DNA of 52,784 nt from a virus (lineage: Duplodnaviria; Caudoviricetes), in the IMG/VR virus record IMGVR_UViG_3300036760_000035, positions 1 through 52,784 of that record. One strand, written 5' to 3'. The number at the start of each line of letters is the position of its first letter. The stretch's first letter is position 1. Below, one piece after another: positions 11,160 to 34,398 of the stretch. The notes below the pieces were generated by a model that was given only the letters and a program-made list of their open reading frames with translations, ran no database searches and was not told the origin of the DNA. A program made the translations under genes and the position numbers.

Positions 11160-11201
11160 TCACTACCATTATTCCAGGAATCCACTCGTGCTTGTGATCG
11201 C

Positions 11202-11678
11202 TCACGGCGTCACCTCCCGCGCGTCGTAGGCGGCGAGGGCGTCTTCCACCCAAGACATGTGCCCAGCGGCAATGCCTTTGCGTATGCACTTCACCACGGC
11301 CCGCGTAAGAGACAACTCGCGCTCCGCCGTCTCCAGTTCGTCGAGCAAGCGAACGACGGCCGACAAGCACGACGGCCCGCTTCGGACACACCCCGCGTGT
11401 TCGCTACGCCACGTCGCCCGTTCCTCTGCTGTGATCATGCTGTGCCTCCCTTGCGATAGTCCGCTGTTTTCTCTGGGCCGGTGTCTTTTTGTCTCTCCTA
11501 ATTTGCTATGTTCTTTACTCCATTCTTTTCGTGCTTCGTCTAACTCTTCACGAGAGTAATAATCTTCAATGCTTATTCCGTGTTCTTCTGCGATTTCATC
11601 CCAATCTAATAAATTATCCGCTTTAATATTATCAATCACATAATCATGGATGAAAGGAATATCAGTCATTATTATCAT
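11202..11678 (-). CDS. Chimeric hypothetical protein; the GC-rich 3' half has its own start (MITAEER...)
   Basis: Abrupt GC shift and internal GGAGG-ATG near 11438. Confidence 0.55.
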   Translation of the reverse strand: MIIMTDIPFIHDYVIDNIKADNLLDWDEIAEEHGISIEDYYSREELDEARKEWSKEHSKLGETKRHRPRENSGLSQGRHSMITAEERATWRSEHAGCVRSGPSCLSAVVRLLDELETAERELSLTRAVVKCIRKGIAAGHMSWVEDALAAYDAREVTP

Positions 11679-17483: not shown

Positions 17484-18812
17484 TTACCACTTCTCCGTAG
17501 TTTTTGCAAGGTTAGGATACCTATCTGCATTGTTACGAATGAATCTTAGAAATGTATCCTCGTTGATTGTATCCTGGAAAATTTGATTCCTTTCTCCCCT
17601 ATCAACCGGAACCTCGTCCAACCCCAACGGGTCAGAATATTGGTGCAACGCATAACAAAATTCAATATCTTTCAGAACCTTTTGTGGATTGAGATTTCCC
17701 TTAAAGATTCTTAACTCAATAGTTGCATCGTTCTGGAGATTCGCCGCGACATATCTGTCATAATTCCCAGCCTTAAGCTTGGCTCGTGAAATTAAATCGG
17801 TTCTTTCTGTTTCTGTGAACCTGGCGAAACTTGATGATCGTTCTGCAATACGTTCACAAAATGATTGATTGTTGTAAAGAAATGAAAGAAATCTCCACAA
17901 GCCAACTTCCTCAAATGCATCCTTGGAAAGATGAATATGAATTCCACAATTCTCTTGTGAATAAGAAGCACATGTTCTTCCAATTTTTCCGAGATTTGAA
18001 ATAAGAATGTTACCTGGATCCTGCCAGTATTCTAACGATGCAGGATGAGATACAATTTCAAATCCATTTACGAGTGAGCCATCGTTCTTAAGATAACAAA
18101 ATGGCTTTAACATTTCTGCAATAGGCATAGCCACTGTTATTGCGTCTGAATATCTTCTGCACTCTACTTCAAGTTCTATACCACTCCATAGAACAGGCAC
18201 AGGCCCTTCGGTTATAAGCAGCGTTCTATTATCAGCAAAGAATATTGGTTGTGGTCTGTATGAATAGGAGTTGATCACACGTGGCCGACAGTTACGGCAT
18301 AACGTTGTAATGCCGGGGACGTGGTTTCTTTCTTCGCGGTCATCTTCATCTTCATCTTCATCCCAGTCACGCTCAGATGAGTATGGTTCTAGAGATTGTA
18401 TAGATTCTTGGAAATATCTAGCACAGTCCTCGCATCTTATGAATGGAACTGTTGATCTGTTTATACATACTACACAAGCAGCGCGATATCTGCCACCAAT
18501 TTCATATTCTGCGAACTCGTTAGCCCTTAAGTAAAAGTGTTCGCTTAATTCGCAATAATAGTGAGCGCGTGAGCATCTGGTACATAATCGTGGCGCAGTG
18601 TCTCTGTTATCATAATGTTCTTCGGTATCGCAAAGGATAAAGCTAGTAACCGCAGCGCGGCCGCAGAGGTGGCAGTGTTGTATAGGGCGAATAAGTTCTA
18701 CGAGTTCTGCTATTGCAAGGTGTGTACATTGTCTAAAGATGAGCCTATCTAACGATACGCAGCGCAACTCTGGAATAAGGTCGTTCACTAGTTGACTAGG
18801 CATACTGTTCAA
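17484..18812 (-). CDS. Putative amidoligase (COOH-NH2 ligase, glutamine-synthetase-like fold) with N-terminal Zn fingers
   Basis: GIELEVE, DGSL..GFEIVSHP, CGIHIHLS, RY.A.N and TIELRIFKG motifs. Confidence 0.85.
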   Translation of the reverse strand: MNSMPSQLVNDLIPELRCVSLDRLIFRQCTHLAIAELVELIRPIQHCHLCGRAAVTSFILCDTEEHYDNRDTAPRLCTRCSRAHYYCELSEHFYLRANEFAEYEIGGRYRAACVVCINRSTVPFIRCEDCARYFQESIQSLEPYSSERDWDEDEDEDDREERNHVPGITTLCRNCRPRVINSYSYRPQPIFFADNRTLLITEGPVPVLWSGIELEVECRRYSDAITVAMPIAEMLKPFCYLKNDGSLVNGFEIVSHPASLEYWQDPGNILISNLGKIGRTCASYSQENCGIHIHLSKDAFEEVGLWRFLSFLYNNQSFCERIAERSSSFARFTETERTDLISRAKLKAGNYDRYVAANLQNDATIELRIFKGNLNPQKVLKDIEFCYALHQYSDPLGLDEVPVDRGERNQIFQDTINEDTFLRFIRNNADRYPNLAKTTEKW

Positions 18813-18818
18813 CCACTG

Positions 18819-19049
18819 TCATTTGATACCTCTAAAAAGCCTTGACCATGATTGATTAAACCAATATATCTTGATTTTTATAGTCCGACCACCTAAAAAA
18901 CAAAGATCTTTATAGTGGATGTTATGCCAAACATTATAGTGTCTTTTGGATTTAATTGACAATCCACGCATTGACCAGCGTATATTGTGAAATCTTTTGC
19001 CTCGATACCAGAAAAATCTAATCGTTGTCATTCTTGACATCCTTCGCAT
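18819..19049 (-). CDS. Small basic hypothetical protein
   Basis: ORF in the tightly packed early run. Confidence 0.45.
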   Translation of the reverse strand: MRRMSRMTTIRFFWYRGKRFHNIRWSMRGLSIKSKRHYNVWHNIHYKDLCFLGGRTIKIKIYWFNQSWSRLFRGIK

Positions 19050-19210
19050 CCATTGATTTCACACCCCGATATTTTAAGATAGCACTCAAGGCATATCATG
19101 CCATCATAAGTAACATTAGTATTTTTACACTTAGAACATAGTATTGTTTGATTAGTTGTGTGCATGTGCTTGATTCCTTTTTCACACAAGATACAGCTAA
19201 GTGGTGGCAT
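19028..19210 (-). CDS. Small Cys-rich hypothetical protein
   Basis: Several CxxC pairs. Confidence 0.55.
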   Translation of the reverse strand: MPPLSCILCEKGIKHMHTTNQTILCSKCKNTNVTYDGMICLECYLKISGCEINGCEGCQE

Positions 19211-19781
19211 TTACATGCTCCATGTAAAATGGATATGTAACTGAAAATCCATTATTCGTCATAAACTCGGTAATCGGATTGAATAATCGATAATTTTCAG
19301 ATGTTGGAGAGAGTTTAAACAAAACAGCATCCAAGAATGCTAATGCTTTTTCTAGATCACAAGCGAGAACATCTGCGATTTCGTACTGGGTGGCTGTAAG
19401 ATTTTTGATATCTGTGTTTATATATTCAATAATCTCGTTTAGTTTTTCAACAATTTTGTAATCAATATCATCTGAGTTTATTATAGTTACTGGTGCTATT
19501 GGTGTAGGATCAACAGAATCGACAGTTAGAATTGCTTGCGTCGTATCATGATTTGATCTAAAACAGGCAAGGCAATGATGTGTCATCCATCCGTCGTGAC
19601 AACAGATACATTCGGAAACAAAATCTGATCCACTAAACGCGAAATACAGCCTGTCTCGTTCTGATTGCACATCTGGTTGGTGATGGTGTAGAATAAGTCC
19701 AGGCTGTGTTGCTTCCGAAGAGGCGATCCTCGCTGAAATGGAATAGTGGGGATTGTTAACAGGCATTATTGCTCCTTCCAT
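19197..19781 (-). CDS. Hypothetical protein
   Basis: AAGGAG RBS before MPVNN. Confidence 0.65.
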   Translation of the reverse strand: MEGAIMPVNNPHYSISARIASSEATQPGLILHHHQPDVQSERDRLYFAFSGSDFVSECICCHDGWMTHHCLACFRSNHDTTQAILTVDSVDPTPIAPVTIINSDDIDYKIVEKLNEIIEYINTDIKNLTATQYEIADVLACDLEKALAFLDAVLFKLSPTSENYRLFNPITEFMTNNGFSVTYPFYMEHVNATT

Positions 19782-19850
19782 TCTAGTAATTCTATTTGAG
19801 TATCAGTGAAACCAATCTTTTCCATTAAGATTCTCCTAGTTTGTAAACGC

Positions 19851-19886
19851 AGAAATAGACTCGATACTACTATCGAGTCTATTTCT
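19851..19886 (-). terminator. Hairpin terminator
   Basis: Perfect 16-bp inverted repeat AGAAATAGACTCGATA-ctac-TATCGAGTCTATTTCT. Confidence 0.75.
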
Positions 19887-20147
19887 TAGACAACAAGAAT
19901 TTGCTAGAAGCGTTTGTTATTCCTCATTATTTTCCCATGTGTGATGACAAGTGCAAGAGCAGATAAATTTCCTCCCCCTCGTTTGACTGTATTCTTGGAT
20001 GCAGTAAGAATGAAATCCAAAGTAACAGCTACCGAACTCAATTCTCTTGATTTTCACGAGTTCCACCCCATTTCTATGATGAACATCCAGATTGCGAAAG
20101 CGGCTACGAGGAGCATCTTGTTACTGATATACATTATCTGCTAATTC

Positions 20148-20477
20148 CTATCGCAAGTTGCAATCTTGCGATTGCAATAGCATCAGTCTTGAGCGTTCTC
20201 GTTCTTCATTAAATGGTAATGAACGACAAAGGTTGATTTCTTGTTTGATTATCAATAACGCATCTTCCTCTGAATTGCACGCCTTTCCCACCCATGCTTG
20301 TTGTGGCGGAGCGTTTTCATTCACAAGCTGACTTGCATGCCAACGTGGCGAAACTTGTCGAGAAAAAGACCAGGGCCAGAACAGAGATAAATCTCTGCTG
20401 TAACAAATTGCATATCCTTCTGAGACAAGTTTGATCGTGTGCGAGTCTATACACTTTGCATTTGATAGATCGCTCAT
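20148..20477 (-). CDS. Hypothetical early protein
   Basis: GAGG RBS, TAATG coupling. Confidence 0.6.
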   Translation of the reverse strand: MSDLSNAKCIDSHTIKLVSEGYAICYSRDLSLFWPWSFSRQVSPRWHASQLVNENAPPQQAWVGKACNSEEDALLIIKQEINLCRSLPFNEERERSRLMLLQSQDCNLR

Positions 20478-20707
20478 TATGCATCAAACCTCTCAACATC
20501 AGCAAGAAAGAAATTATTGTAGTCATTGGTATGTTTAACGATGTAGCTTTGTCCATCATCAAGCGGAATCTGAATCATCCAGTGTTGACTGTTATCATAA
20601 GTTTTCAGTGCTTTGAGGATTGATTCCGGCGTCCAATCATCAACAAGAACATAGTGATCGTGATCGCCACACTCACAATTGATCTTGACGTAAGTATTCA
20701 TGACCAT
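20477..20707 (-). CDS. Hypothetical early protein
   Basis: ORF coupled to the next gene. Confidence 0.6.
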   Translation of the reverse strand: MVMNTYVKINCECGDHDHYVLVDDWTPESILKALKTYDNSQHWMIQIPLDDGQSYIVKHTNDYNNFFLADVERFDA

Positions 20708-20777
20708 TTTATGAAAAACTTACTTGCACCATTTTCGAGAGTTTTTTTCGGCCATTGTTGACTGTTGTCATAAGCTT

Positions 20778-21038
20778 TCAATTTATGATGCCTTGATCGA
20801 TGAGTGCCTTGATCATATCTTCACATCCGAGTTTGTAGATACACAACCATTGACCTACCCCGTTTACCAAATTGCTGGCGAATAGATTCGACGCAGCAAC
20901 CCGGTTTTTGATACTCGCCACCGGGGCGATTTCCAACAATTGCTCGCGGCGCTCATTAAGCAATAGCTCAATCATGGTGTTCATTTCTTCATTCATTCTT
21001 ATCGAGAGCATCCATATGGTTGCTTCATTCGGAGTCAT
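20778..21038 (-). CDS. Hypothetical early protein (MTPNEATIW...)
   Basis: AAGGTG upstream of the internal ATG. Confidence 0.6.
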   Translation of the reverse strand: MTPNEATIWMLSIRMNEEMNTMIELLLNERREQLLEIAPVASIKNRVAASNLFASNLVNGVGQWLCIYKLGCEDMIKALIDQGIIN

Positions 21039-21180
21039 TTCGGCACCTTTCGCATTGTCCATTTCTTACCGTCAAGTCAATGGCATTACACTTGAGACAA
21101 GTGTAGGAATCATTGATGCGCTTGATTTGCTGATTCCGAACATCGGAATTCACAGAGTTTCGATTCGACAACTTAGCCAT
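21025..21180 (-). CDS. Small Zn-finger protein, 51 aa (MAKLSNRNS...CLKC...CERC...)
   Basis: Purine-rich RBS and two CxxC pairs; absent from the ORF track. Confidence 0.55.
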   Translation of the reverse strand: MAKLSNRNSVNSDVRNQQIKRINDSYTCLKCNAIDLTVRNGQCERCRNDSE

Positions 21181-21249
21181 TTCTCTTTTCCCTTTTCACT
21201 TACAGAACGAATGAGAGTTCCTTTTTTCTTTTCTAATCGAATCGCATAA

Positions 21250-21460
21250 CTCCCGCGCGTCAGTCGTGTCAGTAGTGGGGCGCGTCCAGCTGCCCGTAGG
21301 GGAGCCTACACCCGCCAGCGCCCACAAGCTACCCTGACCCCGGAGCAGCTGGAACAGCTGGCCCCCATGGGCGGTCAGGGGACGGGCAAACGGAAGGGCT
21401 CCCCGGTGAAGGGGAGCCCTAGGACGGCCTACGTCGGCGCTGGCGCCCCACCGGGGCGCT
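21250..21460 (-). ncRNA. Candidate structured RNA (or structured DNA element)
   Basis: About 70% GC by manual count of 21301-21420, with at least seven complementary segment pairs; strand inferred from the upstream promoter. Confidence 0.45.
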
Positions 21461-21853
21461 TAGGTGGCGGCCACCTTCACTTTGGGAACCTTGGACGCCA
21501 CGTAGACTTTCTTATGAGTGACCTGTATCACCAGCGTGTCGCCGTCAACGGTGCCAGCTACTACCACGTCACCTGTCTGAGCTAACTTCGTGTTTCGCAC
21601 CGTGAACCCGGCCCGCGAGAATGCGGCCTTGGCCGATGCCGAAACTGCCGCGTTCAAGTGAGTAGCGGCGTCGTAGCAATCGATGGCCGCGAACGGTATG
21701 TGCCATCCACGGTCAATCGACGTTGCGAGCCGTGCATGGTCAGGCATGTCCATGAACCATTCGTAGAGTTCATCGACTATCGCCGGGATTGGCGGGGTAG
21801 CGGACTTCCCCGCGCTCCCCTTTTCGATTTGCGTGACAAGTTCTGTCCTCACT
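21460..21853 (-). CDS. GC-rich hypothetical protein, first gene of the leftward arm
   Basis: GGGAG RBS before GTG (MRTELVTQIEKG...); codon usage unlike the rest of the genome. Confidence 0.65.
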
Positions 21854-21906
21854 GTGATAACTCCCGCATGGCCGCATCCATATCGATGCCGCGCCTTGCA
21901 CAAACA

Positions 21907-21936
21907 AACTTACAGTAAGGGAATCTCAGGTGTCAA
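21907..21936 (-). promoter_or_regulatory. Sigma70-type early promoter TTGACA-N18-TAAGTT with TG extension
   Basis: Minus strand reads TTGACAcctgagattcccttactgTAAGTT. Confidence 0.65.
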
Positions 21937-22029
21937 TCACCAATCTTTGCCTGTGCCAAATCTCAGGTTGACTGGCCGTAGGCGATTGCCTGGCCTTGGG
22001 CGGGGGTGGGGCATCATTACGCCTTTGTA

Positions 22030-22745
22030 GGAATAGTGTTGAGTATAGGAACGGCATTCCTTTGTCAGTGTACTGCTACCGTCATGGACGGTCTGCTATC
22101 GCAATGCGATTAGCCGTAGTGAACCTGATACTTATATAACAATCGTCGGGAGTGCATGGAAAAGAATAGTACACCATTGCATACTGTTGCAGTTGCAATA
22201 CTTTGCAATTAGATACTTGGAATACTGCTAGGAATACATAGAATAATAATTATTCCACTCTCTAATGCCCGGTAGGGGATTGGCTATTAGCCCTTGGTTT
22301 TGGCGGAGAGAGTACTCTAGCATACATCTTATGATTCTAGCATACATCTTATGATTCTTTTGTGTACCTTTGATCATTGTTATCATAGTACCACTATCTT
22401 AATTTTATATATATAAATTAATAGATAGTAGATTTAGAAGAAGAAGATTTATATAAAAGAGAATATAGAATAGGAGCCCTGGAGGGCTCCCTGTTGTCTG
22501 TACGGCCGATGGTACCTTTATAGTTTAACATAGAGATCAGGGCTTCACAGTAACAGGCTTAGAAATTCAGGATAAATTCAGGTTGGCACAAGCTAGCCCT
22601 AAACAACAGGGCTCCTAACCGCCCATCAGGGCGGTATCTCGCGCCCGCAGGCGCTATTACAGTCGCAATCTGCAACTGTGCCAGCGTAATAGGAACGCAA
22701 CATGTAAGGGGTTGCTTGGAGTCTTGACTAGTGTTACCGTGGGAA
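22030..22745. other. Non-coding divergent control region (candidate origin and/or genome end)
   Basis: No ORFs; tandem repeat, AT-rich palindromic tract at 22400-22420, clustered hairpins at 22473-22680. Confidence 0.5.
22316..22358. repeat. Tandem 20-bp repeat (TCTAGCATACATCTTATGAT x2)
   Basis: Exact duplication in the non-coding control region. Confidence 0.9.
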
Positions 22746-22768
22746 ACATGAAGACTATGGGGGAATAG

Positions 22769-23164
22769 ATGAAAGTAAATTCAACGATTGTTGGCATATA
22801 TGGCTCTGAGAGTTATGAAGATCTTGTAGCAGTAAACGAAGTAATCACTCATTGCCTGAGTGATGATTATGTTATAGTTTCCGAAGGCCACCCCGGGCCA
22901 GAGAGGTATGCTGGGTTATTGTTAAAGGCACGTTGGGCGGAAGACCGCGTTTGCAGCGGTGGACATTTGGTTGCATATCCAGATCAATGGATGGATATAA
23001 TTAATATAATCTTCTGGAATTACACCGATGATAACATCAGAACCTTTATAAAGAATTCTCAATATCGGGGAGACTTTGGTTACGTCATTGCAGATGATAT
23101 GTGTACCAATTTCCCACGTGTTCAAAGAATTGAAGATGTTGACGTGGATAAATTCTATGACTAA
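22769..23164 (+). CDS. Hypothetical protein (possible SLOG/YspA-like fold)
   Basis: VGIYGSESY...IVSEGHPGPE resembles the SLOG pattern; weak. Confidence 0.5.
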   Translation: MKVNSTIVGIYGSESYEDLVAVNEVITHCLSDDYVIVSEGHPGPERYAGLLLKARWAEDRVCSGGHLVAYPDQWMDIINIIFWNYTDDNIRTFIKNSQYRGDFGYVIADDMCTNFPRVQRIEDVDVDKFYD

Positions 23165-23321
23165 GTTAACAGAAAAAGAAAAAGGATGGATTCGCAAACA
23201 TGCAGAGAACGGTTATTCTTCTTCTCCTGATGTAATCATTCAGTTGCTCGATGAGTTACAGGAAGCGCAAGAAGAGTTAGGGCAACAAAAATTACTACAG
23301 GATACAAAAACACGTGGTTGA
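23157..23321 (+). CDS. Small hypothetical protein (MTKLTEKEKGW...PDVIIQLLDELQE)
   Basis: Internal ATG; Ead/Ea22-like P.v..LLDEL motif. Confidence 0.5.
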   Translation: MTKLTEKEKGWIRKHAENGYSSSPDVIIQLLDELQEAQEELGQQKLLQDTKTRG

Positions 23322-23544
23322 TAAACAAGACATAGGTGATATCGGGCGAGAGGTTCAGATAGCCTTGTTTAAAGTAGTACCAGCACTGTTTGAACCAAAA
23401 GCTGAGAACCAATGGGTTCTCTATAAACTTATGGAGAAGCCATCATGGAAGGCCATCATTGACGAGGGGTGGATAAACTCTCAACCGGGAATTGATTCTC
23501 AGGAATGGGATATTGCCCGTCCCTGGTTTTTGTTCTATAACTAG
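23314..23544 (+). CDS. Hypothetical protein
   Basis: ORF overlapping the upstream stop. Confidence 0.55.
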   Translation: MVDKQDIGDIGREVQIALFKVVPALFEPKAENQWVLYKLMEKPSWKAIIDEGWINSQPGIDSQEWDIARPWFLFYN

Positions 23545-23584
23545 TAGAATCACAATTCTACGTGGTATACTTAAGCTAATATAG

Positions 23585-23658
23585 CTGGGTGTATTTCAGC
23601 CTGGAAGAAGACTCGCTTTGGGAGCGAGTAGTCGTTGGTTCAAATCCAACCACCCAGA
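23585..23658 (+). tRNA. tRNA-Pro(UGG)
   Basis: CTGGGTG/CACCCAG acceptor, CTCGC-TT TGG GA-GCGAG anticodon arm, GGTTCAAATCC T-arm; TGGTATACT -10 upstream. Confidence 0.92.
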
Positions 23659-23687
23659 AAATCAAATTAACTTAAGGAGTACAGATT

Positions 23688-24515
23688 ATGGTGAGTGAAT
23701 TTAATGGAGCGGCTGCGCTCTTTAAGGCTCAGGGACTTGACAATACAATTGAGATTGCAGACTCGAATGGCGTAGTTCATAAGATTAGAGCGAACTCTAC
23801 AACTGGCGTACTGGAGTTCTACAAGGCTAACGATATTATCCAGTCTGTGGGCAGCCTTGGCAGACAGGATCTCTCTGGCATTAATATCGACGCTGCTAAC
23901 ACAGACGGCGGCATCTTTAAGGCCGGTACGTCTGCGGCAAGAGTTATCGAAGATACTGCTAACATGAAGTTCATGTCTTTCTACTTCGACAACGGCGCGG
24001 TATCCGGCGACAGCAGGGGCATCTATTTACGGCAGTACATTACCGGCGCTGGTGGCGGTGGGGATGCTGCAAGATTCTATGAGACTGTTGAGAATGTCGC
24101 TGCCGCTACAGTGAGAGGGGCTCATATCTCCCTCGATTGGGGTGCATCGGGCAGTTGTACAGGTTTGGGTGTCGCGCTTGAATGTACATTACATATACGA
24201 TCTACAGCAGGTGCCGCTGGCACCATTGCTCCGCTCAAGGTTGCCGTTAACAGCGATGCATCAACATCCGATCCTGTCGGTGCTTCACTGAGCATGATTC
24301 AGGTTGTGAACCAGGGTGACGGAACCGGGGGGCTTGATGTTGATACAGATGCCGCTTTGTTTGCCTTTTCCGGTTTTGCATCAGCATCCGGGACAGCAAA
24401 TATGGTTTCTTCGACAAGTCTTGCAGAACTTCCGGCGTCTTCGATTGGTTTCCGCGTTACTTTTGGCGGGGCCGTGTATTACATCCCGGCAGTCATTTCC
24501 ACACAGTGGAACTAA
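23688..24515 (+). CDS. Putative virion fibre/decoration protein outside the structural module
   Basis: AAGGAG RBS; G/A/S/T-rich beta-helix-like sequence; ends ...GAVYYIP like fibre C-termini. Confidence 0.55.
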   Translation: MVSEFNGAAALFKAQGLDNTIEIADSNGVVHKIRANSTTGVLEFYKANDIIQSVGSLGRQDLSGINIDAANTDGGIFKAGTSAARVIEDTANMKFMSFYFDNGAVSGDSRGIYLRQYITGAGGGGDAARFYETVENVAAATVRGAHISLDWGASGSCTGLGVALECTLHIRSTAGAAGTIAPLKVAVNSDASTSDPVGASLSMIQVVNQGDGTGGLDVDTDAALFAFSGFASASGTANMVSSTSLAELPASSIGFRVTFGGAVYYIPAVISTQWN

Positions 24516-24537
24516 ACCTTACCTTAAGGAGTAGTAA

Positions 24538-24849
24538 TTGGAACTAACAGTAGCAGATCGCCTTATGTTGATTAATCTCCTGCCAACCGCAGGAGATATA
24601 ACCACCCTTAGAATAGTAAGGGATCTACAGACTGAGTTGAGTTTCTCGGAAGAGGAACATGCAGTTCTTAAACTTAAGCAGGATGGCGACAGGATTCAAT
24701 GGGACAATTCCGCCGAGACTTTAAAAGACGTGGCCGTTGGCCCAAGGGGACATCTTCTGATAGCCGAAAGACTACAGGAAATAAGCGACAAGAAGGAGCT
24801 AACACTTACCCAGGTGGCCCTCTTTGAGAAGTTCGAAGCCTCGGCATAG
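24538..24849 (+). CDS. Conserved phage protein, possible fibre chaperone
   Basis: MELTVADRLMLINLLP..GD..TL.I..DL...LSFSEEE; AAGGAG RBS. Confidence 0.55.
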   Translation: MELTVADRLMLINLLPTAGDITTLRIVRDLQTELSFSEEEHAVLKLKQDGDRIQWDNSAETLKDVAVGPRGHLLIAERLQEISDKKELTLTQVALFEKFEASA

Positions 24850-24871
24850 GCTCCAAAGGTAAAGATTCCGC

Positions 24872-24896
24872 AGAGGGGGCCGAAAGGCCCCCTCTT
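24872..24896 (+). terminator. Hairpin terminator
   Basis: AGAGGGGGCC-gaaa-GGCCCCCTCT followed by a T-rich tail. Confidence 0.8.
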
Positions 24897-24900
24897 GCTC

Positions 24901-24929
24901 TTGCTTGAAGTCTCTGGGCGTGGCAGTAT
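24901..24929 (+). promoter_or_regulatory. Putative promoter of the tRNA cluster (TTGCTT-N17-CAGTAT)
   Basis: Same TTGCTTG motif and spacing as at 7525, 22712 and 30756. Confidence 0.5.
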
Positions 24930-24990
24930 AGGAGTTGGGTCGAGCTTAGTAGGGGCGTTTGGGAGCGTCGCTAGAATAACTCCAGCGCAT

Positions 24991-25067
24991 CTCGGAGGGG
25001 CGGGAAAGTGACCGCGCTTGTCTCATACGCAAGATAAATGATGGAGCGTTACCATCCTTCGATACCA
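24991..25067 (+). tRNA. Atypical tRNA with CAU anticodon (Met or Ile2)
   Basis: CTTGT-CT CAT AC-GCAAG; GATGG-AGCGTTA-CCATC T-arm; C1xU72 mismatch; encoded CCA. Confidence 0.75.
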
Positions 25068-25074
25068 ATATCCT

Positions 25075-25150
25075 GCCTTCGTAGCTCAATTGGAAGAGCA
25101 AATCTCTTGTAAAGATTAGGTTGTAAGTTCAAGTCTTACCGGGGGCTCCA
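25075..25150 (+). tRNA. tRNA-Thr(UGU)
   Basis: AATCT-CT TGT AA-AGATT; canonical cloverleaf with CCA. Confidence 0.93.
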
Positions 25151-25253
25151 CTTTTAATAAACATAGGAGAAAGAGATGTCGGGGTTGCAGATATTAATGT
25201 AGACATTGATGAAGTTCTGCTCTGCATTAAGAATTACATCTTAGCTGAACAAT

Positions 25254-25327
25254 AGGAGTATCGTTCAACGGAAGGGCCTTCGTCTTATATACGAATGATG
25301 TAGGTTCGACTCCTACTGCTCCTACCA
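25254..25327 (+). tRNA. tRNA-Ile(UAU)
   Basis: TTCGT-CT TAT AT-ACGAA; GGTTCGACTCC T-arm; A73 and CCA. Confidence 0.88.
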
Positions 25328-25330
25328 AAC

Positions 25331-25403
25331 GCGACGATTAGCTCAGTGAAAGAGCGCTCCAGTGCGAGAGATGACAGGGGTTTGATTCCCCTATCGCCGC
25401 CCA
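25331..25403 (+). tRNA. Degenerate or atypical tRNA-His(GUG)
   Basis: G-1:C73 identity pair and CCA, but a shortened anticodon arm (CTC-CAGTGCGA-GAG) without U33. Confidence 0.55.
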
Positions 25404-25404
25404 T

Positions 25405-25478
25405 TCCCCGTTCGTCTAACGGAAGGACATTAGATTTTGGCTCTAAGAATCGGGGTTCGAATCCTCGATGGGGAACCA
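25405..25478 (+). tRNA. tRNA-Gln(UUG)
   Basis: TTAGA-TT TTG GC-TCTAA; U1-A72; CCA. Confidence 0.9.
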
Positions 25479-25491
25479 ATGATATTATCAC

Positions 25492-25568
25492 GGCCCGTTA
25501 GCTCAGTTGGATAGAGCGAATCACTTCTAACGATTAGGTCGGGAGTTCGAGTCTCTCACGGGCTGCCA
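25492..25568 (+). tRNA. tRNA-Arg(UCU)
   Basis: AATCA-CT TCT AA-CGATT; A20 in the D-loop; GCCA end. Confidence 0.92.
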
Positions 25569-25582
25569 AAGAAAGAAATAGA

Positions 25583-26122
25583 ATGAAAGATAAAGATGAA
25601 TATTACTTCGGAGTTGCTGAGGCAATCAGTAAAGGATCTACATGTCCTCGCTTGCAAGTCGGGTGTGTTCTCGTGTCCCAGGACAGAATCAAATCAACTG
25701 GCTATAATGGAGCGATTGCTGGTAAGCCGCATTGTGAAGATGTTGGATGTTTTATTGTCAGAGATCATTGTGTTCGAGCAATACATGCAGAAAGAAATGT
25801 CTTAGACTACGCAGCCTGGGACATCCATATTGGTGATGTTCTTTATTGTACGCATAAGCCATGCGACTCATGTGCTGCCAGTATTCCAGAGATTCTTACT
25901 GTAAAGTATAAGAATGAATATCCTATTAGGGCACTTAATGCTTCCAGTGAAAATCTGGAAGATTCCAACAGGGATCGTGATGTAACGGCTAGCCTGTCTG
26001 CCTTTCCCTCTGATCCCTCCAACTGTTTACATATGAGCCTGGCAAACTATGTGGATATTCAAAATCGTATATTTATTTCGTGCATTAATTGTAAAAGGGT
26101 AATTATGGAATTGCTAGCGTAG
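25583..26122 (+). CDS. dCMP deaminase
   Basis: STC.R.QVG, TGYNG, HAE and PCDSC motifs; extra C-terminal extension. Confidence 0.92.
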   Translation: MKDKDEYYFGVAEAISKGSTCPRLQVGCVLVSQDRIKSTGYNGAIAGKPHCEDVGCFIVRDHCVRAIHAERNVLDYAAWDIHIGDVLYCTHKPCDSCAASIPEILTVKYKNEYPIRALNASSENLEDSNRDRDVTASLSAFPSDPSNCLHMSLANYVDIQNRIFISCINCKRVIMELLA

Positions 26123-26188
26123 GCCAACGGCAGAGTCAACAGACTTAAAATCTGTATAGTGAGAGTTCGAGTCTCTCCGCTAGCACCA
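26113..26188 (+). tRNA. tRNA-Leu(UAA), short variable arm
   Basis: ACAGA-CT TAA AA-TCTGT; 5-nt variable loop; ACCA. Confidence 0.9.
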
Positions 26189-26194
26189 TATAAT

Positions 26195-26267
26195 GGAACT
26201 GTAGACCAACGGTAGAGTCATGCGCTTTAGAAGCGTATCAGTGAAAGTTCGAATCTTTCCAGTTCCA
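26195..26267 (+). tRNA. tRNA-Leu(UAG), short variable arm
   Basis: TGCGC-TT TAG AA-GCGTA; GGAACTG/CAGTTCC acceptor. Confidence 0.9.
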
Positions 26268-26273
26268 CAAGTC

Positions 26274-26349
26274 AGACTCGTAAGCCAACGGCAGAGCAAT
26301 CCGATTCAAAGTCGGATGGATTTGGGTTCGAATCCCAACGAGTCTACCA
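26274..26349 (+). tRNA. tRNA-Leu(CAA), short variable arm
   Basis: TCCGA-TT CAA AG-TCGGA; AGACTCG/CGAGTCT acceptor; ACCA. Confidence 0.88.
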
Positions 26350-26790: not shown

Positions 26791-29034
26791 ATGACCTTAA
26801 CTGAAAATGGCAGACTTGTAATGGAGAGAAGAATTTCTCCAAGGGATGCAGATGGCAATCCCACAGAGACACCAGAAGAAACATTTGAAAGAGTTGCCAG
26901 CGCGGTTGCCGCTGGCGATCTTATGTTCGGAAGCACACCGGAGCAGTTAAAGAAAATACATGATAAGTTTTACAGACTGTTATCCAGCCTGGACTTTCTT
27001 CCTAATTCCCCAACGTTAGTAAATGCAGGTAGAGAGATTGGGCAGCTATCAGCCTGTTTTGTTATCCCGGTTGAAGATTCAATGGAGGATATTTTTAATG
27101 CTGTCAAGAACGCTGCGCTTATACATAAAACCGGGGGAGGCACCGGCTTTTCATTCTCCAAACTACGAGCAGAAGGTAGCAGAGTTGATAAGACAAACGG
27201 AATCGCAAGCGGGCCTGTGTCCTTTATGCAGGTATTCGATAAGGCAACTGAGGTTATCAAGCAAGGGGGGGTTAGACGTGGAGCTAACATGGGAATCTTG
27301 CGAATCGACCACCCCGATATCAGATCATTCATTCGAGTTAAAGACGATCTAAAGACCCTTACAAACTTTAATATCTCTGTTGCTGTTACTGACGCATTTA
27401 TGGATGCTCTCGATAAGAATGCTAGATATAATCTTATTGATCCTAAGACGCAAGAAGCGACGGGATCTCTTAATGCAAATGAAGTCTGGCAAGAGATTAT
27501 TCAATCTGCATGGAAAACCGGTGATCCGGGACTTGTCTTCATTGACAGGATTAATGCAAGTAGGGCGAACCCGGTACCATCGCTTGGCCCGATTGAAGCT
27601 ACAAATCCCTGTGGCGAGCAGCCACTGTATCCATATGATTCCTGTAATCTTGGAAGTATCAACTTGTCTAACTTTGTTGAAGAACAAAACGGACGGCCAG
27701 TACTTGACGGCGGCAGGCTGATGGAGACAGTAGAAGATGCTGTGCATTTTCTTGATAATGTGATTGAAATAAATAAGTATCCATTACCAGAGATTGACAA
27801 AGTTTCTAAGGCAATCAGGCGAATTGGCCTTGGGGTTATGGGGTTCGCAGATATGCTTATCAAGCTTAAGATAAGATATGGGAGTAACGATTCTCTTGAA
27901 GTGGCAGAGAATATTGCTAAGATAATTGCAAATACTGCCGACCAGAAATCTACCCAACTTGCATTTGCAAGAGGGGCATTCCCACTATATCCGGTATCTA
28001 TTTACAAGGATACTCCAATAAGAAACTCAACAAGAACAACCATAGCCCCCACTGGAACCATCTCTATTATCGCTGGGTGTTCTTCTGGTATTGAGCCTGT
28101 GTATGCATTTAACTTGATAAGAAGTCATTATCTTGATAAAGATGATCCTTCCAAGCGCCATGAAATGGAAGAATGGCATCCGTTATATGAAGCATGGCGC
28201 CTTGCTCATCCAAATCTCCCCCGCCCAGACTATCTTGTTGAAGCAAAGGACATCTCTGTTTCGGAACATGTTGCGATGCAGGCTGCGTGGCAGCGACAGG
28301 TTGATAACTGTGTGTCTAAGACGATCAATCTTCCTAACAGTGCAGATTATGAATTAGTTGATTTGGCTTACAGAGAAGCCTGGGGGATGGGATGTAATGG
28401 AATCACCATCTATAGAGATGGTTGTAGGGATAATCAAGTATTAAGAGAGGAACCAAAAGATGAACAGTCTACCATATCACATAAAAGCCACAACGAAGAA
28501 GTGGTATTGCCAGACCAGCCTGAGCAAGAAGGAGTGGGCGAACCTACTCCCCTCGACACACTTACCAAAAACAGAAGAGTTTCCATTAGCGATACAAGAC
28601 CTGGTATCATCCATAAATTCCGAATTGGAGATTTTAAGGCGTACATTATTGTTGGAATTTCAGATACTGGATCCCCGCGTGAAGTCTTTATCATTGGAAG
28701 TAAAATCGGAAGCACAACGAGGGGGTACCTTGACTCTATCGGTACCCTCATATCAACAGCCCTCCGCAACGGTATCCCTGTCGAGGCCGTTGTCCAGAAG
28801 CTTATCGGAACTAAATTCGAACCCTCTGGCTTCACTGGGGATGGAGCTATTCCCGTTGCGAGCAGCATTCTTGATTATGTTGGCTTATGGCTTAGGAGCA
28901 AATTTTCCCAACCAGACACTGATAAAGTATTTAAGACAGTGCATGGTGACTTATGCCCTGAATGTGACGCCGGACTTTACTACGGAGAGGGCTGTTTAAC
29001 ATGCGTGTCTTGCGGATACTCGAAGTGTGGCTAA
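26791..29034 (+). CDS. nrdJ: Class II (adenosylcobalamin-dependent) ribonucleotide reductase with C-terminal TSCPD-like domain
   Basis: PNSPTL, SACFV, GGGTG, RRGANM, TNPCGEQ, CNLGSINL, TIAPTGTIS and terminal Cys cluster; no beta-subunit gene in the genome. Confidence 0.92.
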   Translation: MTLTENGRLVMERRISPRDADGNPTETPEETFERVASAVAAGDLMFGSTPEQLKKIHDKFYRLLSSLDFLPNSPTLVNAGREIGQLSACFVIPVEDSMEDIFNAVKNAALIHKTGGGTGFSFSKLRAEGSRVDKTNGIASGPVSFMQVFDKATEVIKQGGVRRGANMGILRIDHPDIRSFIRVKDDLKTLTNFNISVAVTDAFMDALDKNARYNLIDPKTQEATGSLNANEVWQEIIQSAWKTGDPGLVFIDRINASRANPVPSLGPIEATNPCGEQPLYPYDSCNLGSINLSNFVEEQNGRPVLDGGRLMETVEDAVHFLDNVIEINKYPLPEIDKVSKAIRRIGLGVMGFADMLIKLKIRYGSNDSLEVAENIAKIIANTADQKSTQLAFARGAFPLYPVSIYKDTPIRNSTRTTIAPTGTISIIAGCSSGIEPVYAFNLIRSHYLDKDDPSKRHEMEEWHPLYEAWRLAHPNLPRPDYLVEAKDISVSEHVAMQAAWQRQVDNCVSKTINLPNSADYELVDLAYREAWGMGCNGITIYRDGCRDNQVLREEPKDEQSTISHKSHNEEVVLPDQPEQEGVGEPTPLDTLTKNRRVSISDTRPGIIHKFRIGDFKAYIIVGISDTGSPREVFIIGSKIGSTTRGYLDSIGTLISTALRNGIPVEAVVQKLIGTKFEPSGFTGDGAIPVASSILDYVGLWLRSKFSQPDTDKVFKTVHGDLCPECDAGLYYGEGCLTCVSCGYSKCG

Positions 29035-31892: not shown

Positions 31893-34392
31893 TGCGCTCG
31901 GATTAGAATTCAAGAATAATAATCCTGCACAGTATGAAGTTCTTATTGGAGATGATAGATTTCCATGCATCATAGGTGGTGAGCGTGGAGGTAAGGCGCT
32001 GGATATAAATACGATCATCCCCACAACGAATGGGATGAAATTTATGAAAGACATAATAGCTGGTGATTATGTCTTCGGGGATGATGGGCTTCCGGCAATG
32101 GTTGTTGCAACATCCGGGATACAGGATAATCGTCCGTGCTCTAAAATAATCTTTGATGATGGATCAGAAATTATAGCAGATGATGAACACGAATGGGCAA
32201 CACAAACTTCTAATGAAAGAAAGAATTCTAGAAGAATAAAGATAAATAAAAAAGAACAACGAATTGTGCAGTCGCCACTAGTTAGTGATAGAAAGTTTGG
32301 AATTAGAACTACTTCTGAAATTTCTAATTCTCTTATTATAACAGGACAAAATAGATCTGATTATGCAAATCATACAATAGTCAATTCTATGCCTGTTCAA
32401 TATGCGAAACAGAAACTAGAAATCGAGCCATATACATTAGGCATATGGCTAGGAGACGGGCACAGCGGCGGAGCGTATTTTACAACAAATGATATAGAAG
32501 TAGTAGAAAACATATCTAAAATTTATCCTGTTAAAAAAGTAAAATCAATATATACCTGGAAGTTTGGTGAAAAAGGAGAAATAATAAAACTTCTTAGATC
32601 ACTAAACATATTCAAAAATAAACACATTCCCACAAAGTATTTAGAATCTTCTATTGAAGATCGTATTAGCCTGCTCCATGGATTAATGGATTCTGATGGA
32701 TATATAGATTCAAGAGGTCAGTGTTATTTTGATAATACTAACAAAAATATAATAGATGGAATAAGAAAACTATTATCGAGTTTAGGGATAAAATCCTATG
32801 TTACAGAATCAATTGCCAAATTATATGGAAAAAACTGTGGAAAAACATGGACTGTTTTTTTTGTTACAGATTTTCATGTTAGTAGAATTAAAAGAAAATA
32901 TGAAAGACAAAAATTATCAGTTGGCAAAAATGCAAAACAAAGATCAATCATATCAATTGAAAAAGTAAAGTCTGTTCCAGTTAAATGTATTGAAGTAGAT
33001 AATAAGTCCCATTTATATCTTGCGGGGGAAACATACATTCCCACCCATAATTCATTCGTTGCAGCGGCGATACTACTGCCACATTTGCTTTTACTTCCAT
33101 TAATAAGAAAAGACAGATTCTTTAATGAGAATGGTAAACCTAAGTTCAACTACCTTGACAAAACAGTCAGGCCGTTGCAGCCAGACTTTGTAATCTTTGG
33201 CCCTAACTATCGCGAGCCACGAATCGAATTTGAGATGGTTGAGACATGGCTCCGTGAGCTAGGCATGATAGCACGCCTCAGTAAGCCCACAGAGGGGGCG
33301 TGGCGGCTCGTGACGAAGGACGGGGTTGTATTGCAGACATGGAGCACTGATGACCCTATGGGTATCCGTGGACTCGACCTGGAGGGGGCTATCGCTGCCG
33401 AGTGTGGCAATATGGAATACGAGTCCATCCTGAGAATCCAGGGTAGAATTTCATCTAAGCGTGGGTTTCTTATCTATGAAGGAACAATGGAGAATTCTAA
33501 AAGATGGTTCGTCAAATTCTCTATCGAAGGCCGCAGGCAGAATAAGTACAGGATTAAGACTTACTCTATTCCTACATGGTGCAATCTCCATGAGTTTCCA
33601 GGAGGCGAGAACGATCCTGAGATACTAAGATTAAAGCAATTATATCCAGAAGACACATGGGCTATGCGTATTGCGGCAGAGCCAATCCCCCCGCGCGAGC
33701 GCGTGATTAACGAGATACACGAAACACATATTAGAAAAGTTAAGTTCCCAAGAGATGATAATGGAAAGATATCTTGCAACATAGAACTCTGGATTGATCC
33801 TGGATATAATCCATCTGCATATGCTGTGTTATGGGTTGCATGGTGGAACACTGATAAAGGAAAGATCTTCTACGTCTTCGACGAATTCTACGAGCAGAAA
33901 ATGCAAACAGAAGATGTGATTCAGAGATGTATACGGCATAAGTTTTATAAGTTCATTAAGCAAGACGGAATTGTAATAGATGTTTCAGCTAAACGTCACG
34001 CCGACGGGAATGAGCCCGCCGTTGAGATATACAGAAAAAGAATGCACAAAGAACCATATACAAAGTACTGGCATGAGAATGCATTGATTGAAAGAATACG
34101 ATCATCTGCTCGTTCCAATCAGATATTTATACATCCTAATTGTTCTGGATTAATAGCAGAACTAGGATTAGGCGAAGAAGTATTTGACAATATGCATCCT
34201 TGGAGATTTCCAATAGGGCGAGATGGTATAATTGTTAGCGATAAGCCAGAAGATAAGTGGAACCACTCATGTAAGGCTTTGGGGTACGGACTTCTAAAAC
34301 ATTTAGGACTTGTTGAAAGACTTGGTGAACGTCCACCGATTCGGAACAGGTTGAAGAAGGTTCATAATATTTTCGATAAAAGGCATCGGTAA
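31852..34392 (+). CDS. terL: Terminase large subunit with intein
   Basis: Walker A GGERGGK/S split by an intein; GLDL....AAE, EGT, IDPG, VFDE and DKWNHSCKALGY; upstream of portal. Confidence 0.88.
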   Translation: MDRLPYQACLPYYDALGLEFKNNNPAQYEVLIGDDRFPCIIGGERGGKALDINTIIPTTNGMKFMKDIIAGDYVFGDDGLPAMVVATSGIQDNRPCSKIIFDDGSEIIADDEHEWATQTSNERKNSRRIKINKKEQRIVQSPLVSDRKFGIRTTSEISNSLIITGQNRSDYANHTIVNSMPVQYAKQKLEIEPYTLGIWLGDGHSGGAYFTTNDIEVVENISKIYPVKKVKSIYTWKFGEKGEIIKLLRSLNIFKNKHIPTKYLESSIEDRISLLHGLMDSDGYIDSRGQCYFDNTNKNIIDGIRKLLSSLGIKSYVTESIAKLYGKNCGKTWTVFFVTDFHVSRIKRKYERQKLSVGKNAKQRSIISIEKVKSVPVKCIEVDNKSHLYLAGETYIPTHNSFVAAAILLPHLLLLPLIRKDRFFNENGKPKFNYLDKTVRPLQPDFVIFGPNYREPRIEFEMVETWLRELGMIARLSKPTEGAWRLVTKDGVVLQTWSTDDPMGIRGLDLEGAIAAECGNMEYESILRIQGRISSKRGFLIYEGTMENSKRWFVKFSIEGRRQNKYRIKTYSIPTWCNLHEFPGGENDPEILRLKQLYPEDTWAMRIAAEPIPPRERVINEIHETHIRKVKFPRDDNGKISCNIELWIDPGYNPSAYAVLWVAWWNTDKGKIFYVFDEFYEQKMQTEDVIQRCIRHKFYKFIKQDGIVIDVSAKRHADGNEPAVEIYRKRMHKEPYTKYWHENALIERIRSSARSNQIFIHPNCSGLIAELGLGEEVFDNMHPWRFPIGRDGIIVSDKPEDKWNHSCKALGYGLLKHLGLVERLGERPPIRNRLKKVHNIFDKRHR
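31996..33051 (+). mobile_element. Intein (352 aa) with LAGLIDADG homing endonuclease, class-3-type
   Basis: Starts ALDINT, ends IPTHN/S; LGIWLGDG and LLHGLMDSDG endonuclease blocks; more AT-rich than the exteins. Confidence 0.92.
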
Positions 34393-34398
34393 TTCTTA

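Follow-up and report, generated by a model that had tools for sequence, protein, structure and literature searches.

A GC-rich multi-helix element behind the first early gene of a Caudoviricetes phage: a possible structured tail of an acquired cassette

Background

Directly behind the first gene of its leftward early arm, a phage genome carries about 190 nucleotides of GC-rich, non-coding DNA that can pair with itself in many ways. Does this stretch work as an RNA, and if so of what kind, or is it simply DNA that arrived together with the gene? The genome is IMG/VR virus record IMGVR_UViG_3300036760_000035 (Duplodnaviria; Caudoviricetes), and the whole record of 52,784 bp is the window analysed here; positions are those of its plus strand. 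The record is complete, with direct terminal repeats of 127 bp. A first-pass annotation, made from the sequence letters alone, had placed the element in an "otherwise AT-rich genome", which at 43.7% GC is only moderately AT-rich. Genes run rightward from ~22.8 kb and leftward from ~21.9 kb to ~10.2 kb. The gene in front of the element, called ORF130 here for its 130-codon open reading frame (ORF), is the first of the leftward early arm, and the element follows its stop codon directly, as the annotation had said. The same annotation had described mutually exclusive pairings and had proposed an antitermination RNA resembling the put sites of phage HK022, a riboswitch, a ribozyme or an anti-defence RNA controlling read-through into the early arm.

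We report that the fold of the element is non-random and that the element is one end of a GC-rich island of foreign composition. We tentatively read the island as a moron-like acquired cassette, the structured RNA tail of which may act in cis as a 3' end, a terminator or a stability barrier.

Self-complementarity of the element

All pairings listed in the first-pass annotation were found where it had placed them, together with perfect stems that it had not listed (Table 1). Perfect stems were counted in the span 21250-21470 and compared with those in 1000 dinucleotide-preserving shuffles of that span. There were 11 stems of at least 7 bp (3.2 expected) and seven of at least 8 bp (0.95 expected), numbers that 0/1000 shuffles equalled in either case; the four stems of at least 9 bp (0.28 expected) were equalled by 1/1000 shuffles and the two of at least 10 bp (0.08 expected) by 2/1000. 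Direct repeats of at least 7 nt were at chance level (4 against 3.2 expected, equalled by 376 of the 1000 shuffles), indicating that the excess of inverted repeats reflects self-complementarity as such and does not follow from motifs that recur. An explanation by low complexity or repeated motifs is thereby ruled out, and the fold is non-random and statistically real.

The element has 72.9% GC, and the 210 nt behind ORF130 are without codon periodicity. GC content at the first, second and third codon positions (GC1/2/3) is 0.74/0.70/0.74, and this flat profile shows the 210 nt to be non-coding. ORF130 has the periodicity of a coding sequence (0.60/0.47/0.68), like a real gene from a GC-richer background. 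The ORF130 frame stays open for 88 codons past the TAA (21196-21459, minus strand), across the element and into the AT-rich spacer, and frame 0 of the plus strand is open too. A protein-coding element was rejected, as these open frames lack periodicity and GC1/2/3 is flat. With the excess of stems and the flat codon positions, the description of the locus as a GC-rich, non-random, non-coding multi-helix element stands.

Table 1. Coordinates of the element, its helices, ORF130 and the adjoining features.
Feature	Position	Strand	Description
Structured GC-rich non-coding element	21272-21462	-	~190 nt, 72% GC; core three-way junction 21310-21448
Helix H1, closing	21275-83 / 21443-51	-	9 bp; distal arm 21275-21283
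First hairpin	21443-49 / 21453-59	-	7 bp; RNA GCGCCCC-GGU-GGGGCGC; begins directly after the ORF130 TAA
Helix 21291/21382	21291-97 / 21382-88		7 bp
Helix H2	21313-22 / 21436-45	-	10 bp; closes the core domain
Arm A	21332-21380	-	H4 (21332-39 / 21373-80, 8 bp) around the CAGCTG hairpin H9
Hairpin H9	21346-51 / 21355-60 (span 21346-60)		CAGCTG-gaa-CAGCTG
Arm B, hairpin H5	21395-404 / 21411-20	-	10 bp, perfect; AGGGCUCCCC-UUCACC-GGGGAGCCCU, then UCCGUUUG on the minus strand
GTAGG	21296-300		
CCTAC	21305-09 and 21428-32 (either can pair with GTAGG)		
Perfect stem beyond the first list	21285-93 / 21345-53		9 bp
Perfect stem beyond the first list	21299-306 / 21397-404		8 bp
Perfect stem beyond the first list	21401-08 / 21449-56		8 bp
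Hub segment	21275-21306	-	pieces perfectly complementary to 21443-51, 21345-53, 21382-88 and 21397-404
ORF130	21460-21852	-	orphan, 130 aa; GTG start, GGGAG 8 nt upstream; 58% GC; stop TAA 21460-62
Island leader	21853-22020	-	54% GC; TTGACA 21938-33 with weak -10; two ACCTGAGATT copies
11-bp direct repeat ATAACTCCCGC	21246-56 and 21857-67		no other exact copy in the genome; brackets a 611-bp unit
Next downstream gene	21025-21180	-	51 aa, CxxC...CxxC, AT-rich, 69 nt past the element

Predicted structure and order of folding

The minus strand was assigned to the element from the direction of the operon only. In the predicted equilibrium ensemble of this strand one nested structure dominates, with base-pair probabilities of 0.76 for H1, 0.82 for H2, 0.99 for H4, 0.91 for H9 and 0.99 for H5. 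The pairings 21291/21382, 21285/21345, 21299/21397 and 21401/21449 have probabilities near 0, and only the pairing with 21443-51 is predicted to be populated among the four complementary partners of the hub segment. The first-pass annotation had taken the crossing of helices 21291/21382 and 21313/21436 to imply a pseudoknot or alternative folds; the two do cross by their coordinates, but the first of them is among the pairings of near-zero probability on the minus strand.

The order of folding was predicted stepwise on a growing leftward transcript. The hairpin 21459-21443 forms earliest, with a probability of 0.99 early on and of 0.07-0.08 in the full transcript, and is predicted to be displaced by H1 only after 21283-21275 has been synthesised. 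Competition between the closing helix and this local hairpin, as first proposed, is thus borne out by prediction. The wider proposal of mutually exclusive pairings holds for this one predicted exchange and is not supported for the four alternative helices of near-zero probability. While H5 is unfinished, 21456-49 is predicted to pair transiently with 21408-01. H5 itself has a probability of 0.98-1.00 at every transcript length that contains it whole, with or without a mask over 21474-21447 that mimics a terminating ribosome; under the mask H1 is lost and H5 is unaffected. A translation-coupled attenuator, in which a ribosome at the stop codon would free or block 21456-49 and thereby act on H5, is unsupported in view of this insensitivity, and no translation-coupled switch is predicted.

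These predictions bear on the idea that the element encodes a new RNA, regulatory or trans-acting, which is transcribed early in infection: a folding switch, a processive antitermination RNA, or an anti-defence or decoy RNA. The element holds more perfect complementarities than can coexist (the 11 stems of at least 7 bp), and two motifs occur twice in forward and once in reverse orientation (GGGGAGCC at 21298 and 21410 versus 21397; GGGGCGC at 21277 and 21453 versus 21443), which is the logic of alternative pairing. The predicted exchange of the local hairpin for H1 and the transient pairing of 21401-08 with 21449-56 would suit a switch, and the site behind the first early gene resembles that of putR, ~270 nt downstream of PR (PMC9378689). 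We nevertheless consider a novel RNA of this kind unlikely, given that the four alternative helices are hardly populated at equilibrium, that H5 does not respond to the ribosome mask, and that no expression platform is present in the form of a U-tract or a sequestered ribosome-binding site (RBS), the next RBS lying 69 nt away in AT-rich sequence. The absence of an Rfam match, an architecture unlike that of put and the lack of any second copy count against it as well.

If it were right, the element might be the first known example of a class of phage early-transcript RNAs not described before, a closed three-way junction of ~190 nt that would be synthesised at the very start of infection as the tail of the first early message, a proposal that we regard as distinctly unlikely. 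In such a class the hub, 21306-21275, would refold the hairpins made before it. The target of the RNA would be the host machinery, on which it would work as a processive antiterminator, as a decoy for a nuclease or defence system, or as an exonuclease-resistant cap, and it would be more than a terminator.

A GC-rich island of foreign composition

The island 21250-22020 is 771 bp long and has 61.2% GC, against 41.0% and 41.8% in its flanks (20000-21249 and 22021-22768). From left to right the GC content passes from 33% (21181-21249) to 73% (21250-21459), 58% in ORF130 and 54% (21853-22020), and returns to 42% beyond. The element is the 3' tail of this compositionally foreign island, which also contains ORF130, a setting that the first-pass annotation had missed. 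The presence of a foreign GC-rich island in an early region of fast turnover explains much of the conspicuousness of the element.

The island also suggests a reading without function, in which palindromes from an intergenic region of the donor, such as a cluster of terminators or of elements like repetitive extragenic palindromes (REP), were carried in with ORF130 and have not yet eroded. A dispersed repeat family should leave copies, and none was seen in 185,579 species, IMG/VR or the JGI metagenomes apart from one chance 21-mer, in scans for exact matches that are insensitive. The 73% GC of the tail, far above the 58% of its gene, would also be unusual in neutral intergenic DNA. The excess over its own gene argues that the GC content serves the structure and suggests selection for stability. 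A functionless passenger is therefore somewhat unlikely in our judgement, for all that its stems are perfect Watson-Crick stems and strand-symmetric, as those of young DNA palindromes are, that the composition of the island is foreign, and that the early region turns over fast, with 7.4 kb lacking similarity to the one relative described below. On general knowledge, the tRNA set of the phage suggests a GC-richer host, which is a possible source of GC-rich DNA.

In the leader of the island a perfect TTGACA, an 18-nt spacer and a weak TAAGTT are visible. The motif ACCTGAGATT occurs there in two exact copies 37 nt apart (21922-21968, minus strand), upstream of ORF130, and one copy overlaps the TTGACA. 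Genome-wide it occurs 8 times at no more than one mismatch, against 4.1 expected, which is no clear enrichment. The pair could be an operator or promoter motif.

A second GC-rich island lies at ~11190-11440 (minus strand), inside an ORF at 11202-11678, and reaches 70% GC per 100 nt. A 78-aa segment encoded there starts at an ATG of its own, has a GGGAGG motif and continues the frame of an N-terminal half that is AT-rich; no family matches were found for this segment.

Short repeats at the left edge and inside the island

One copy of ATAACTCCCGC stands exactly at the left GC edge and the other just upstream of the start of ORF130. The pair could be the scar of an insertion by short-homology crossover. 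By a rough estimate the chance expectation of an 11-mer pair in 1.1 kb is ~0.1, which is not negligible. A 12-mer, CTCCCGCGCGTC, is common to the left edge of the island and the 3' edge of the second one (11214-25), with an E-value of 0.02 in the pairwise comparison and of 0.57 genome-wide.

Such repeats raise the question of whether the element acts as DNA, folded as a single strand or extruded as a cruciform, and serves, for example, as the site where the 611-bp unit recombines or inserts, or as a replication signal near the divergence point. The positions of the two ATAACTCCCGC copies are those left by integration of a circle through a single crossover, the 12-mer is shared by the two islands, and gene orientation and GC skew both switch close to the locus. 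Perfect Watson-Crick stems alone are present, and both strands fold equally. Against this, both repeats have the chance expectations just given, the right GC edge (~22020) lies off the repeat, the integron core sites GTTRRRY and RYYYAAC occur 0 times in 21230-21480, and iterons are absent, the direct repeats being at chance. Among the ORFs scanned with Pfam, a subset of the total, none matched an integrase, a recombinase or a reverse transcriptase. A DNA-level element is on balance improbable. A retron, a diversity-generating retroelement, an attP site and an integron were each rejected, there being no reverse transcriptase or integrase in the scanned ORFs, no long template/variable repeat pair, no attC cores and no tRNA fragment.

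Authenticity of the island

GC-rich DNA of another organism might have been joined into the phage contig during assembly. The source of the record is a sediment metagenome, a single run contains it, the GC edge is very sharp, and one contig of a second assembly ends at 21007. We consider such an artefact very improbable: the 127-bp terminal repeats close the record, which is rated complete, two joins would have to be false for an internal insertion of 0.77 kb, and a k-mer assembler is not misled by a repeat of only 11 bp. Besides the IMG record, the second assembly has ORF130 too, on a contig of 8337 bp that is far longer than the island. All 31-mers sampled from 21000-22100, across both edges, were present in the contigs of one sequencing run (113/113); that run is probably the source sample, so the result argues against a mis-join and is not independent biology. 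Placing the contigs of that run gave the one ending at 21007, which leaves the island uncovered and is uninformative.

Searches for relatives

The first-pass annotation had proposed an Rfam search and a collection of homologues, and both came back empty. Rfam searches by E-value (Rfam 15; 20500-22800 and 21230-21480) returned only noise. The best match, to CC2171, reached 17 bits (E 0.1), where the gathering score is 75, and covered one hairpin only; the rest had E >1. Membership in a described RNA family was rejected, no score being near a gathering threshold. With no Rfam match and an architecture that differs from put, positive evidence was found for none of the proposed classes, be it a put-like antitermination RNA, a riboswitch, a ribozyme or an anti-defence RNA. 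As to the proposed control of read-through, some effect would be in keeping with a place between genes 1 and 2 of the leftward early operon, while no class of regulator is supported.

Within the genome the element is single-copy. Patterns built from it found three unrelated terminator hairpins in IMG/VR and then zero matches, and two exact patterns gave 0 and 0 matches in the GTDB genome contigs (185,579 species); scans of this kind depend on exact words and have little sensitivity to copies that have diverged. In the JGI metagenomes a single exact 21-mer match to the element was found, on contig L011. Similarity in its left flank was at chance (277/500 shuffles), and a collinear 13-mer in the right flank was equalled by 6/500. 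A covariance model built from the element scored 13.8 bits on L011 (E 0.53 in 123 kb). L011 was treated as a chance match, its flanks being at or near chance and the E-value 0.53. The matching part of L011 (1683-1803) sits in a region of >600 nt with neither a convincing ORF nor an Rfam match, which may be an unannotated RNA.

ORF130 found only itself among 5.8 billion proteins in a word-indexed search. An exhaustive HMMER search of 1.84 billion representatives returned itself and two long repeat proteins, matched in 22 and 7 stretches, which were judged spurious as homologues. Searches of IMG/VR and of JGI metagenome loci gave no homologue; its best E-value among PDB sequences was 0.05, and PHROGs and PADLOC gave none. 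Leads to its function are sub-threshold only (DUF6950, with an E-value of 0.057 in Pfam and 0.86 in Atlas), and a single-sequence AlphaFold2 model was unusable (predicted local distance difference test score 36). Neighbouring genes, used as probes, also found no relatives.

Comparison with the one related phage

A sole relative, G001, was found by its capsid protein, used alone and as an alignment. It is an IMG/VR record of 53.8 kb with a capsid protein 66% identical, and it is syntenic nearly genome-wide. The exception is 18134-25595 of the window, corresponding to G001 39538-30626, where 7.4 kb are without similarity. Copies of the element, ORF130 and the neighbouring early genes are all absent from G001; since the whole 7.4-kb early region is dissimilar, though, no clean empty site is visible.

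At the equivalent position, where the early genes start beyond the AT-rich divergence region, G001 has three different small ORFs of ~55-62% GC. These early ORFs end in a perfect 12-bp hairpin, GAAAGCGCCGAT-GAAA-ATCGGCGCTTTC. A GC-rich first early cassette with a strong 3' hairpin therefore recurs at this spot in unrelated sequences. That both members of the lineage have unrelated GC-rich first early genes followed by a strong hairpin points to a hot spot for captures. The G001 cassette occupies G001 33726-34876 (L009 15726-16876), and ~500 nt beyond its hairpin are without ORFs.

A proposed acquired cassette with a structured 3' tail

The deviant GC content and the layout of the island lead to the moron-like reading. 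The cassette would be small, GC-rich and horizontally acquired, and would open the leftward early operon with a leader, the orphan ORF130 and a multi-helix tail of 190 nt, in that order. We infer that the active form of the tail is RNA, that the minus strand is the relevant one and that its function is that of a barrier. The tail would work in cis on the leftward transcript as a constitutive stack, made up of a closing helix of ~16-19 bp, two stable arms and the 10-bp GC hairpin with its U-containing tail. The ORF130 message would have its 3' end formed or shielded by this stack, which might be a terminator-like barrier or pause, an obstacle to 3' exonucleases or a site of double-strand processing, and the acquired gene would be insulated from the resident early genes downstream.

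H5 is the most terminator-like part of the element and was formed in every folding state examined. On the minus strand it resembles the other terminator-like hairpins of the phage, which combine perfectly paired stems of 8-16 bp with tails of scattered U and stand at gene ends or convergence points. Its own tail, UCCGUUUG, has 4 U in the 8 nt past the stem and fails the U-tail rule of the terminator scan.

Several results weigh against this reading. No U-run follows any of the helices, each strand having a single TTT, and the terminator scan of 21250-21470 was empty on both strands; a promoter scan of the minus strand over 21853-22300 likewise found zero promoter-like sites. The two strands fold equally (-123.0 versus -122.4 kcal/mol, with 5 versus 2 G-U pairs), so that the sequence by itself marks neither an active strand nor RNA over DNA. 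Folding against shuffles, another check proposed in the first-pass annotation, gave a weak excess of minimum free energy on the 221-nt span (z -2.03 on the plus strand, 7/200 shuffles folding as well; z -1.67 on the minus strand, 15/200). It came out more clearly on the trimmed span 21272-21462 (z -2.9 plus, -3.1 minus) and on the core 21310-21448 (z -4.3 plus, -3.85 minus; 0-1/300 shuffles), the bounds of which were picked after the fold was known and bias the z-scores in its favour. The ATAACTCCCGC repeat misses the right GC edge, which is ~150 bp further out. One hairpin is enough for termination, as in G001, and 190 nt with five helices exceed that need. The element also appears, from the searches above, to be a singleton.

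If the tail is functional, the accessory cassettes that phages capture may bring with them an elaborate RNA 3' module besides a gene, and such a module would set the expression of the new gene and its insulation from the early operon. RNA 3' modules are a little-studied side of moron domestication. At present the element is a well-defined candidate for probing, neither a demonstrated non-coding RNA nor a demonstrated switch.

Other features of the phage genome

Recognisable products of the phage are the terminase large subunit, the major head protein, a class II ribonucleotide reductase, DnaB, a primase-polymerase, ThyX, a dCMP deaminase and an endolysin. No lysogeny genes were detected, and at the DNA level no similar phage was found in the INPHARED set apart from tRNAs. 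The eight tRNA genes at 23.6-26.3 kb (23585-26349) were the sole matches of a whole-genome Rfam search at the gathering thresholds. They are Pro-TGG, Thr-TGT, Ile-TAT, Gln-TTG, Arg-TCT, Leu-TAA, Leu-TAG and Leu-CAA, and all read A- or G-ending codons, a bias which, on general knowledge, suggests a host GC-richer than the phage. Such codons are used less in ORF130 (9/39) than in late genes such as that of the terminase (152/302).

The terminase large subunit (846 aa) has an intein-like insertion with a LAGLIDADG homing endonuclease at 32019-33169. With 26.6% GC at 32501-33000 the insertion is AT-rich, and the terminase of G001 has no match to this stretch. In the structural arm, an ORF of 2489 aa (39212-46681) had zero Pfam or PHROG matches. 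Hairpin promoters of the N4 type were rejected for the phage, as this ORF is without a family match and there is thus no evidence for a virion RNA polymerase.

A perfect inverted repeat of 23 nt, far beyond chance length in 53 kb, has its copies 6.4 kb apart at 20994-21016 and 27399-27421. They lie in an early ORF of 94 aa and in the ribonucleotide reductase gene, in different reading frames, and the second-assembly contig that stops at 21007 does so within the first copy.

The divergent intergenic region (22316-22490 and 22608-22615) contains an exact 20-bp tandem duplication (22316-22355), a very AT-rich stretch and the hairpin GGAGCCCTGGAGGGCTCC. This region may be an origin or a regulatory region. 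Of the octamer AGGGCTCC the genome has 7 copies where 0.96 are expected, 5 of them inside 21395-22615.

Comparison with known systems

The put RNA of HK022 is described as ~70 nt long with two stem-loops that have bulges, non-canonical pairs and a triplex and together take a V shape, and as binding the zinc-binding domain of the RNA polymerase beta' subunit and suppressing downstream terminators (PMC9378689). The element shares with put the place of a cis RNA downstream of an early promoter, with putR after the first early gene and ~270 nt from the start. It differs in its ~190 nt, its five perfect GC helices and its closed three-way junction, and no similarity to put was detectable.

The attC sites of integrons are usually 57-141 bp long. 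Like an integron cassette, the island has a promoter-poor small ORF followed by a region of imperfect palindromes, in a unit bracketed by a short direct repeat. Unlike one, it has an element of 190 nt, above the length of attC, no GTTRRRY or RYYYAAC site and no detected integrase.

Hairpin terminators poor in U-tracts, called I-shaped, occur in GC-rich bacteria. The 10-bp GC hairpin of the element (21395-21420) stands after a gene as intrinsic and I-shaped terminators do, and as the other gene-end hairpins of this phage do; in contrast to intrinsic terminators, H5 is followed by only 4 U in 8 nt and is embedded in a larger closed fold. A canonical intrinsic terminator of GC stem and U-tract was rejected, with zero scan calls in 21250-21470.

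The RNase III sites of T7 early genes are single bulged hairpins of ~60 nt, and REP sequences form dispersed repeat families which, with bacterial interspersed mosaic elements, are 3' stabilisers of E. coli mRNAs. By analogy, the element may be likened to both as a stable intercistronic or 3' structure on an early polycistronic transcript that would define or protect mRNA 3' ends, and its coaxial stack of H1 and H2, predicted at ~16-19 bp, would approach the length of an RNase III substrate. Unlike REP, it is single-copy.

Morons are accessory cassettes marked by a deviant GC content and by having a promoter and a terminator of their own (PMC3594210). The island is similar in being a short putative insertion of deviant GC content (61.2% against 43.7% for the genome) that is absent from a related phage, with one small ORF and then a region of strong stem-loops. 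It differs in that morons are in the late operon of a prophage, whereas the element is in the early arm of a phage in which no lysogeny genes were detected; it has no predicted sigma-70 promoter or canonical U-tract terminator, and ends in a multi-helix domain of 190 nt where a moron has a single hairpin. Among the systems compared, the element would by analogy work most like a moron terminator or an intercistronic structure for processing or stability.

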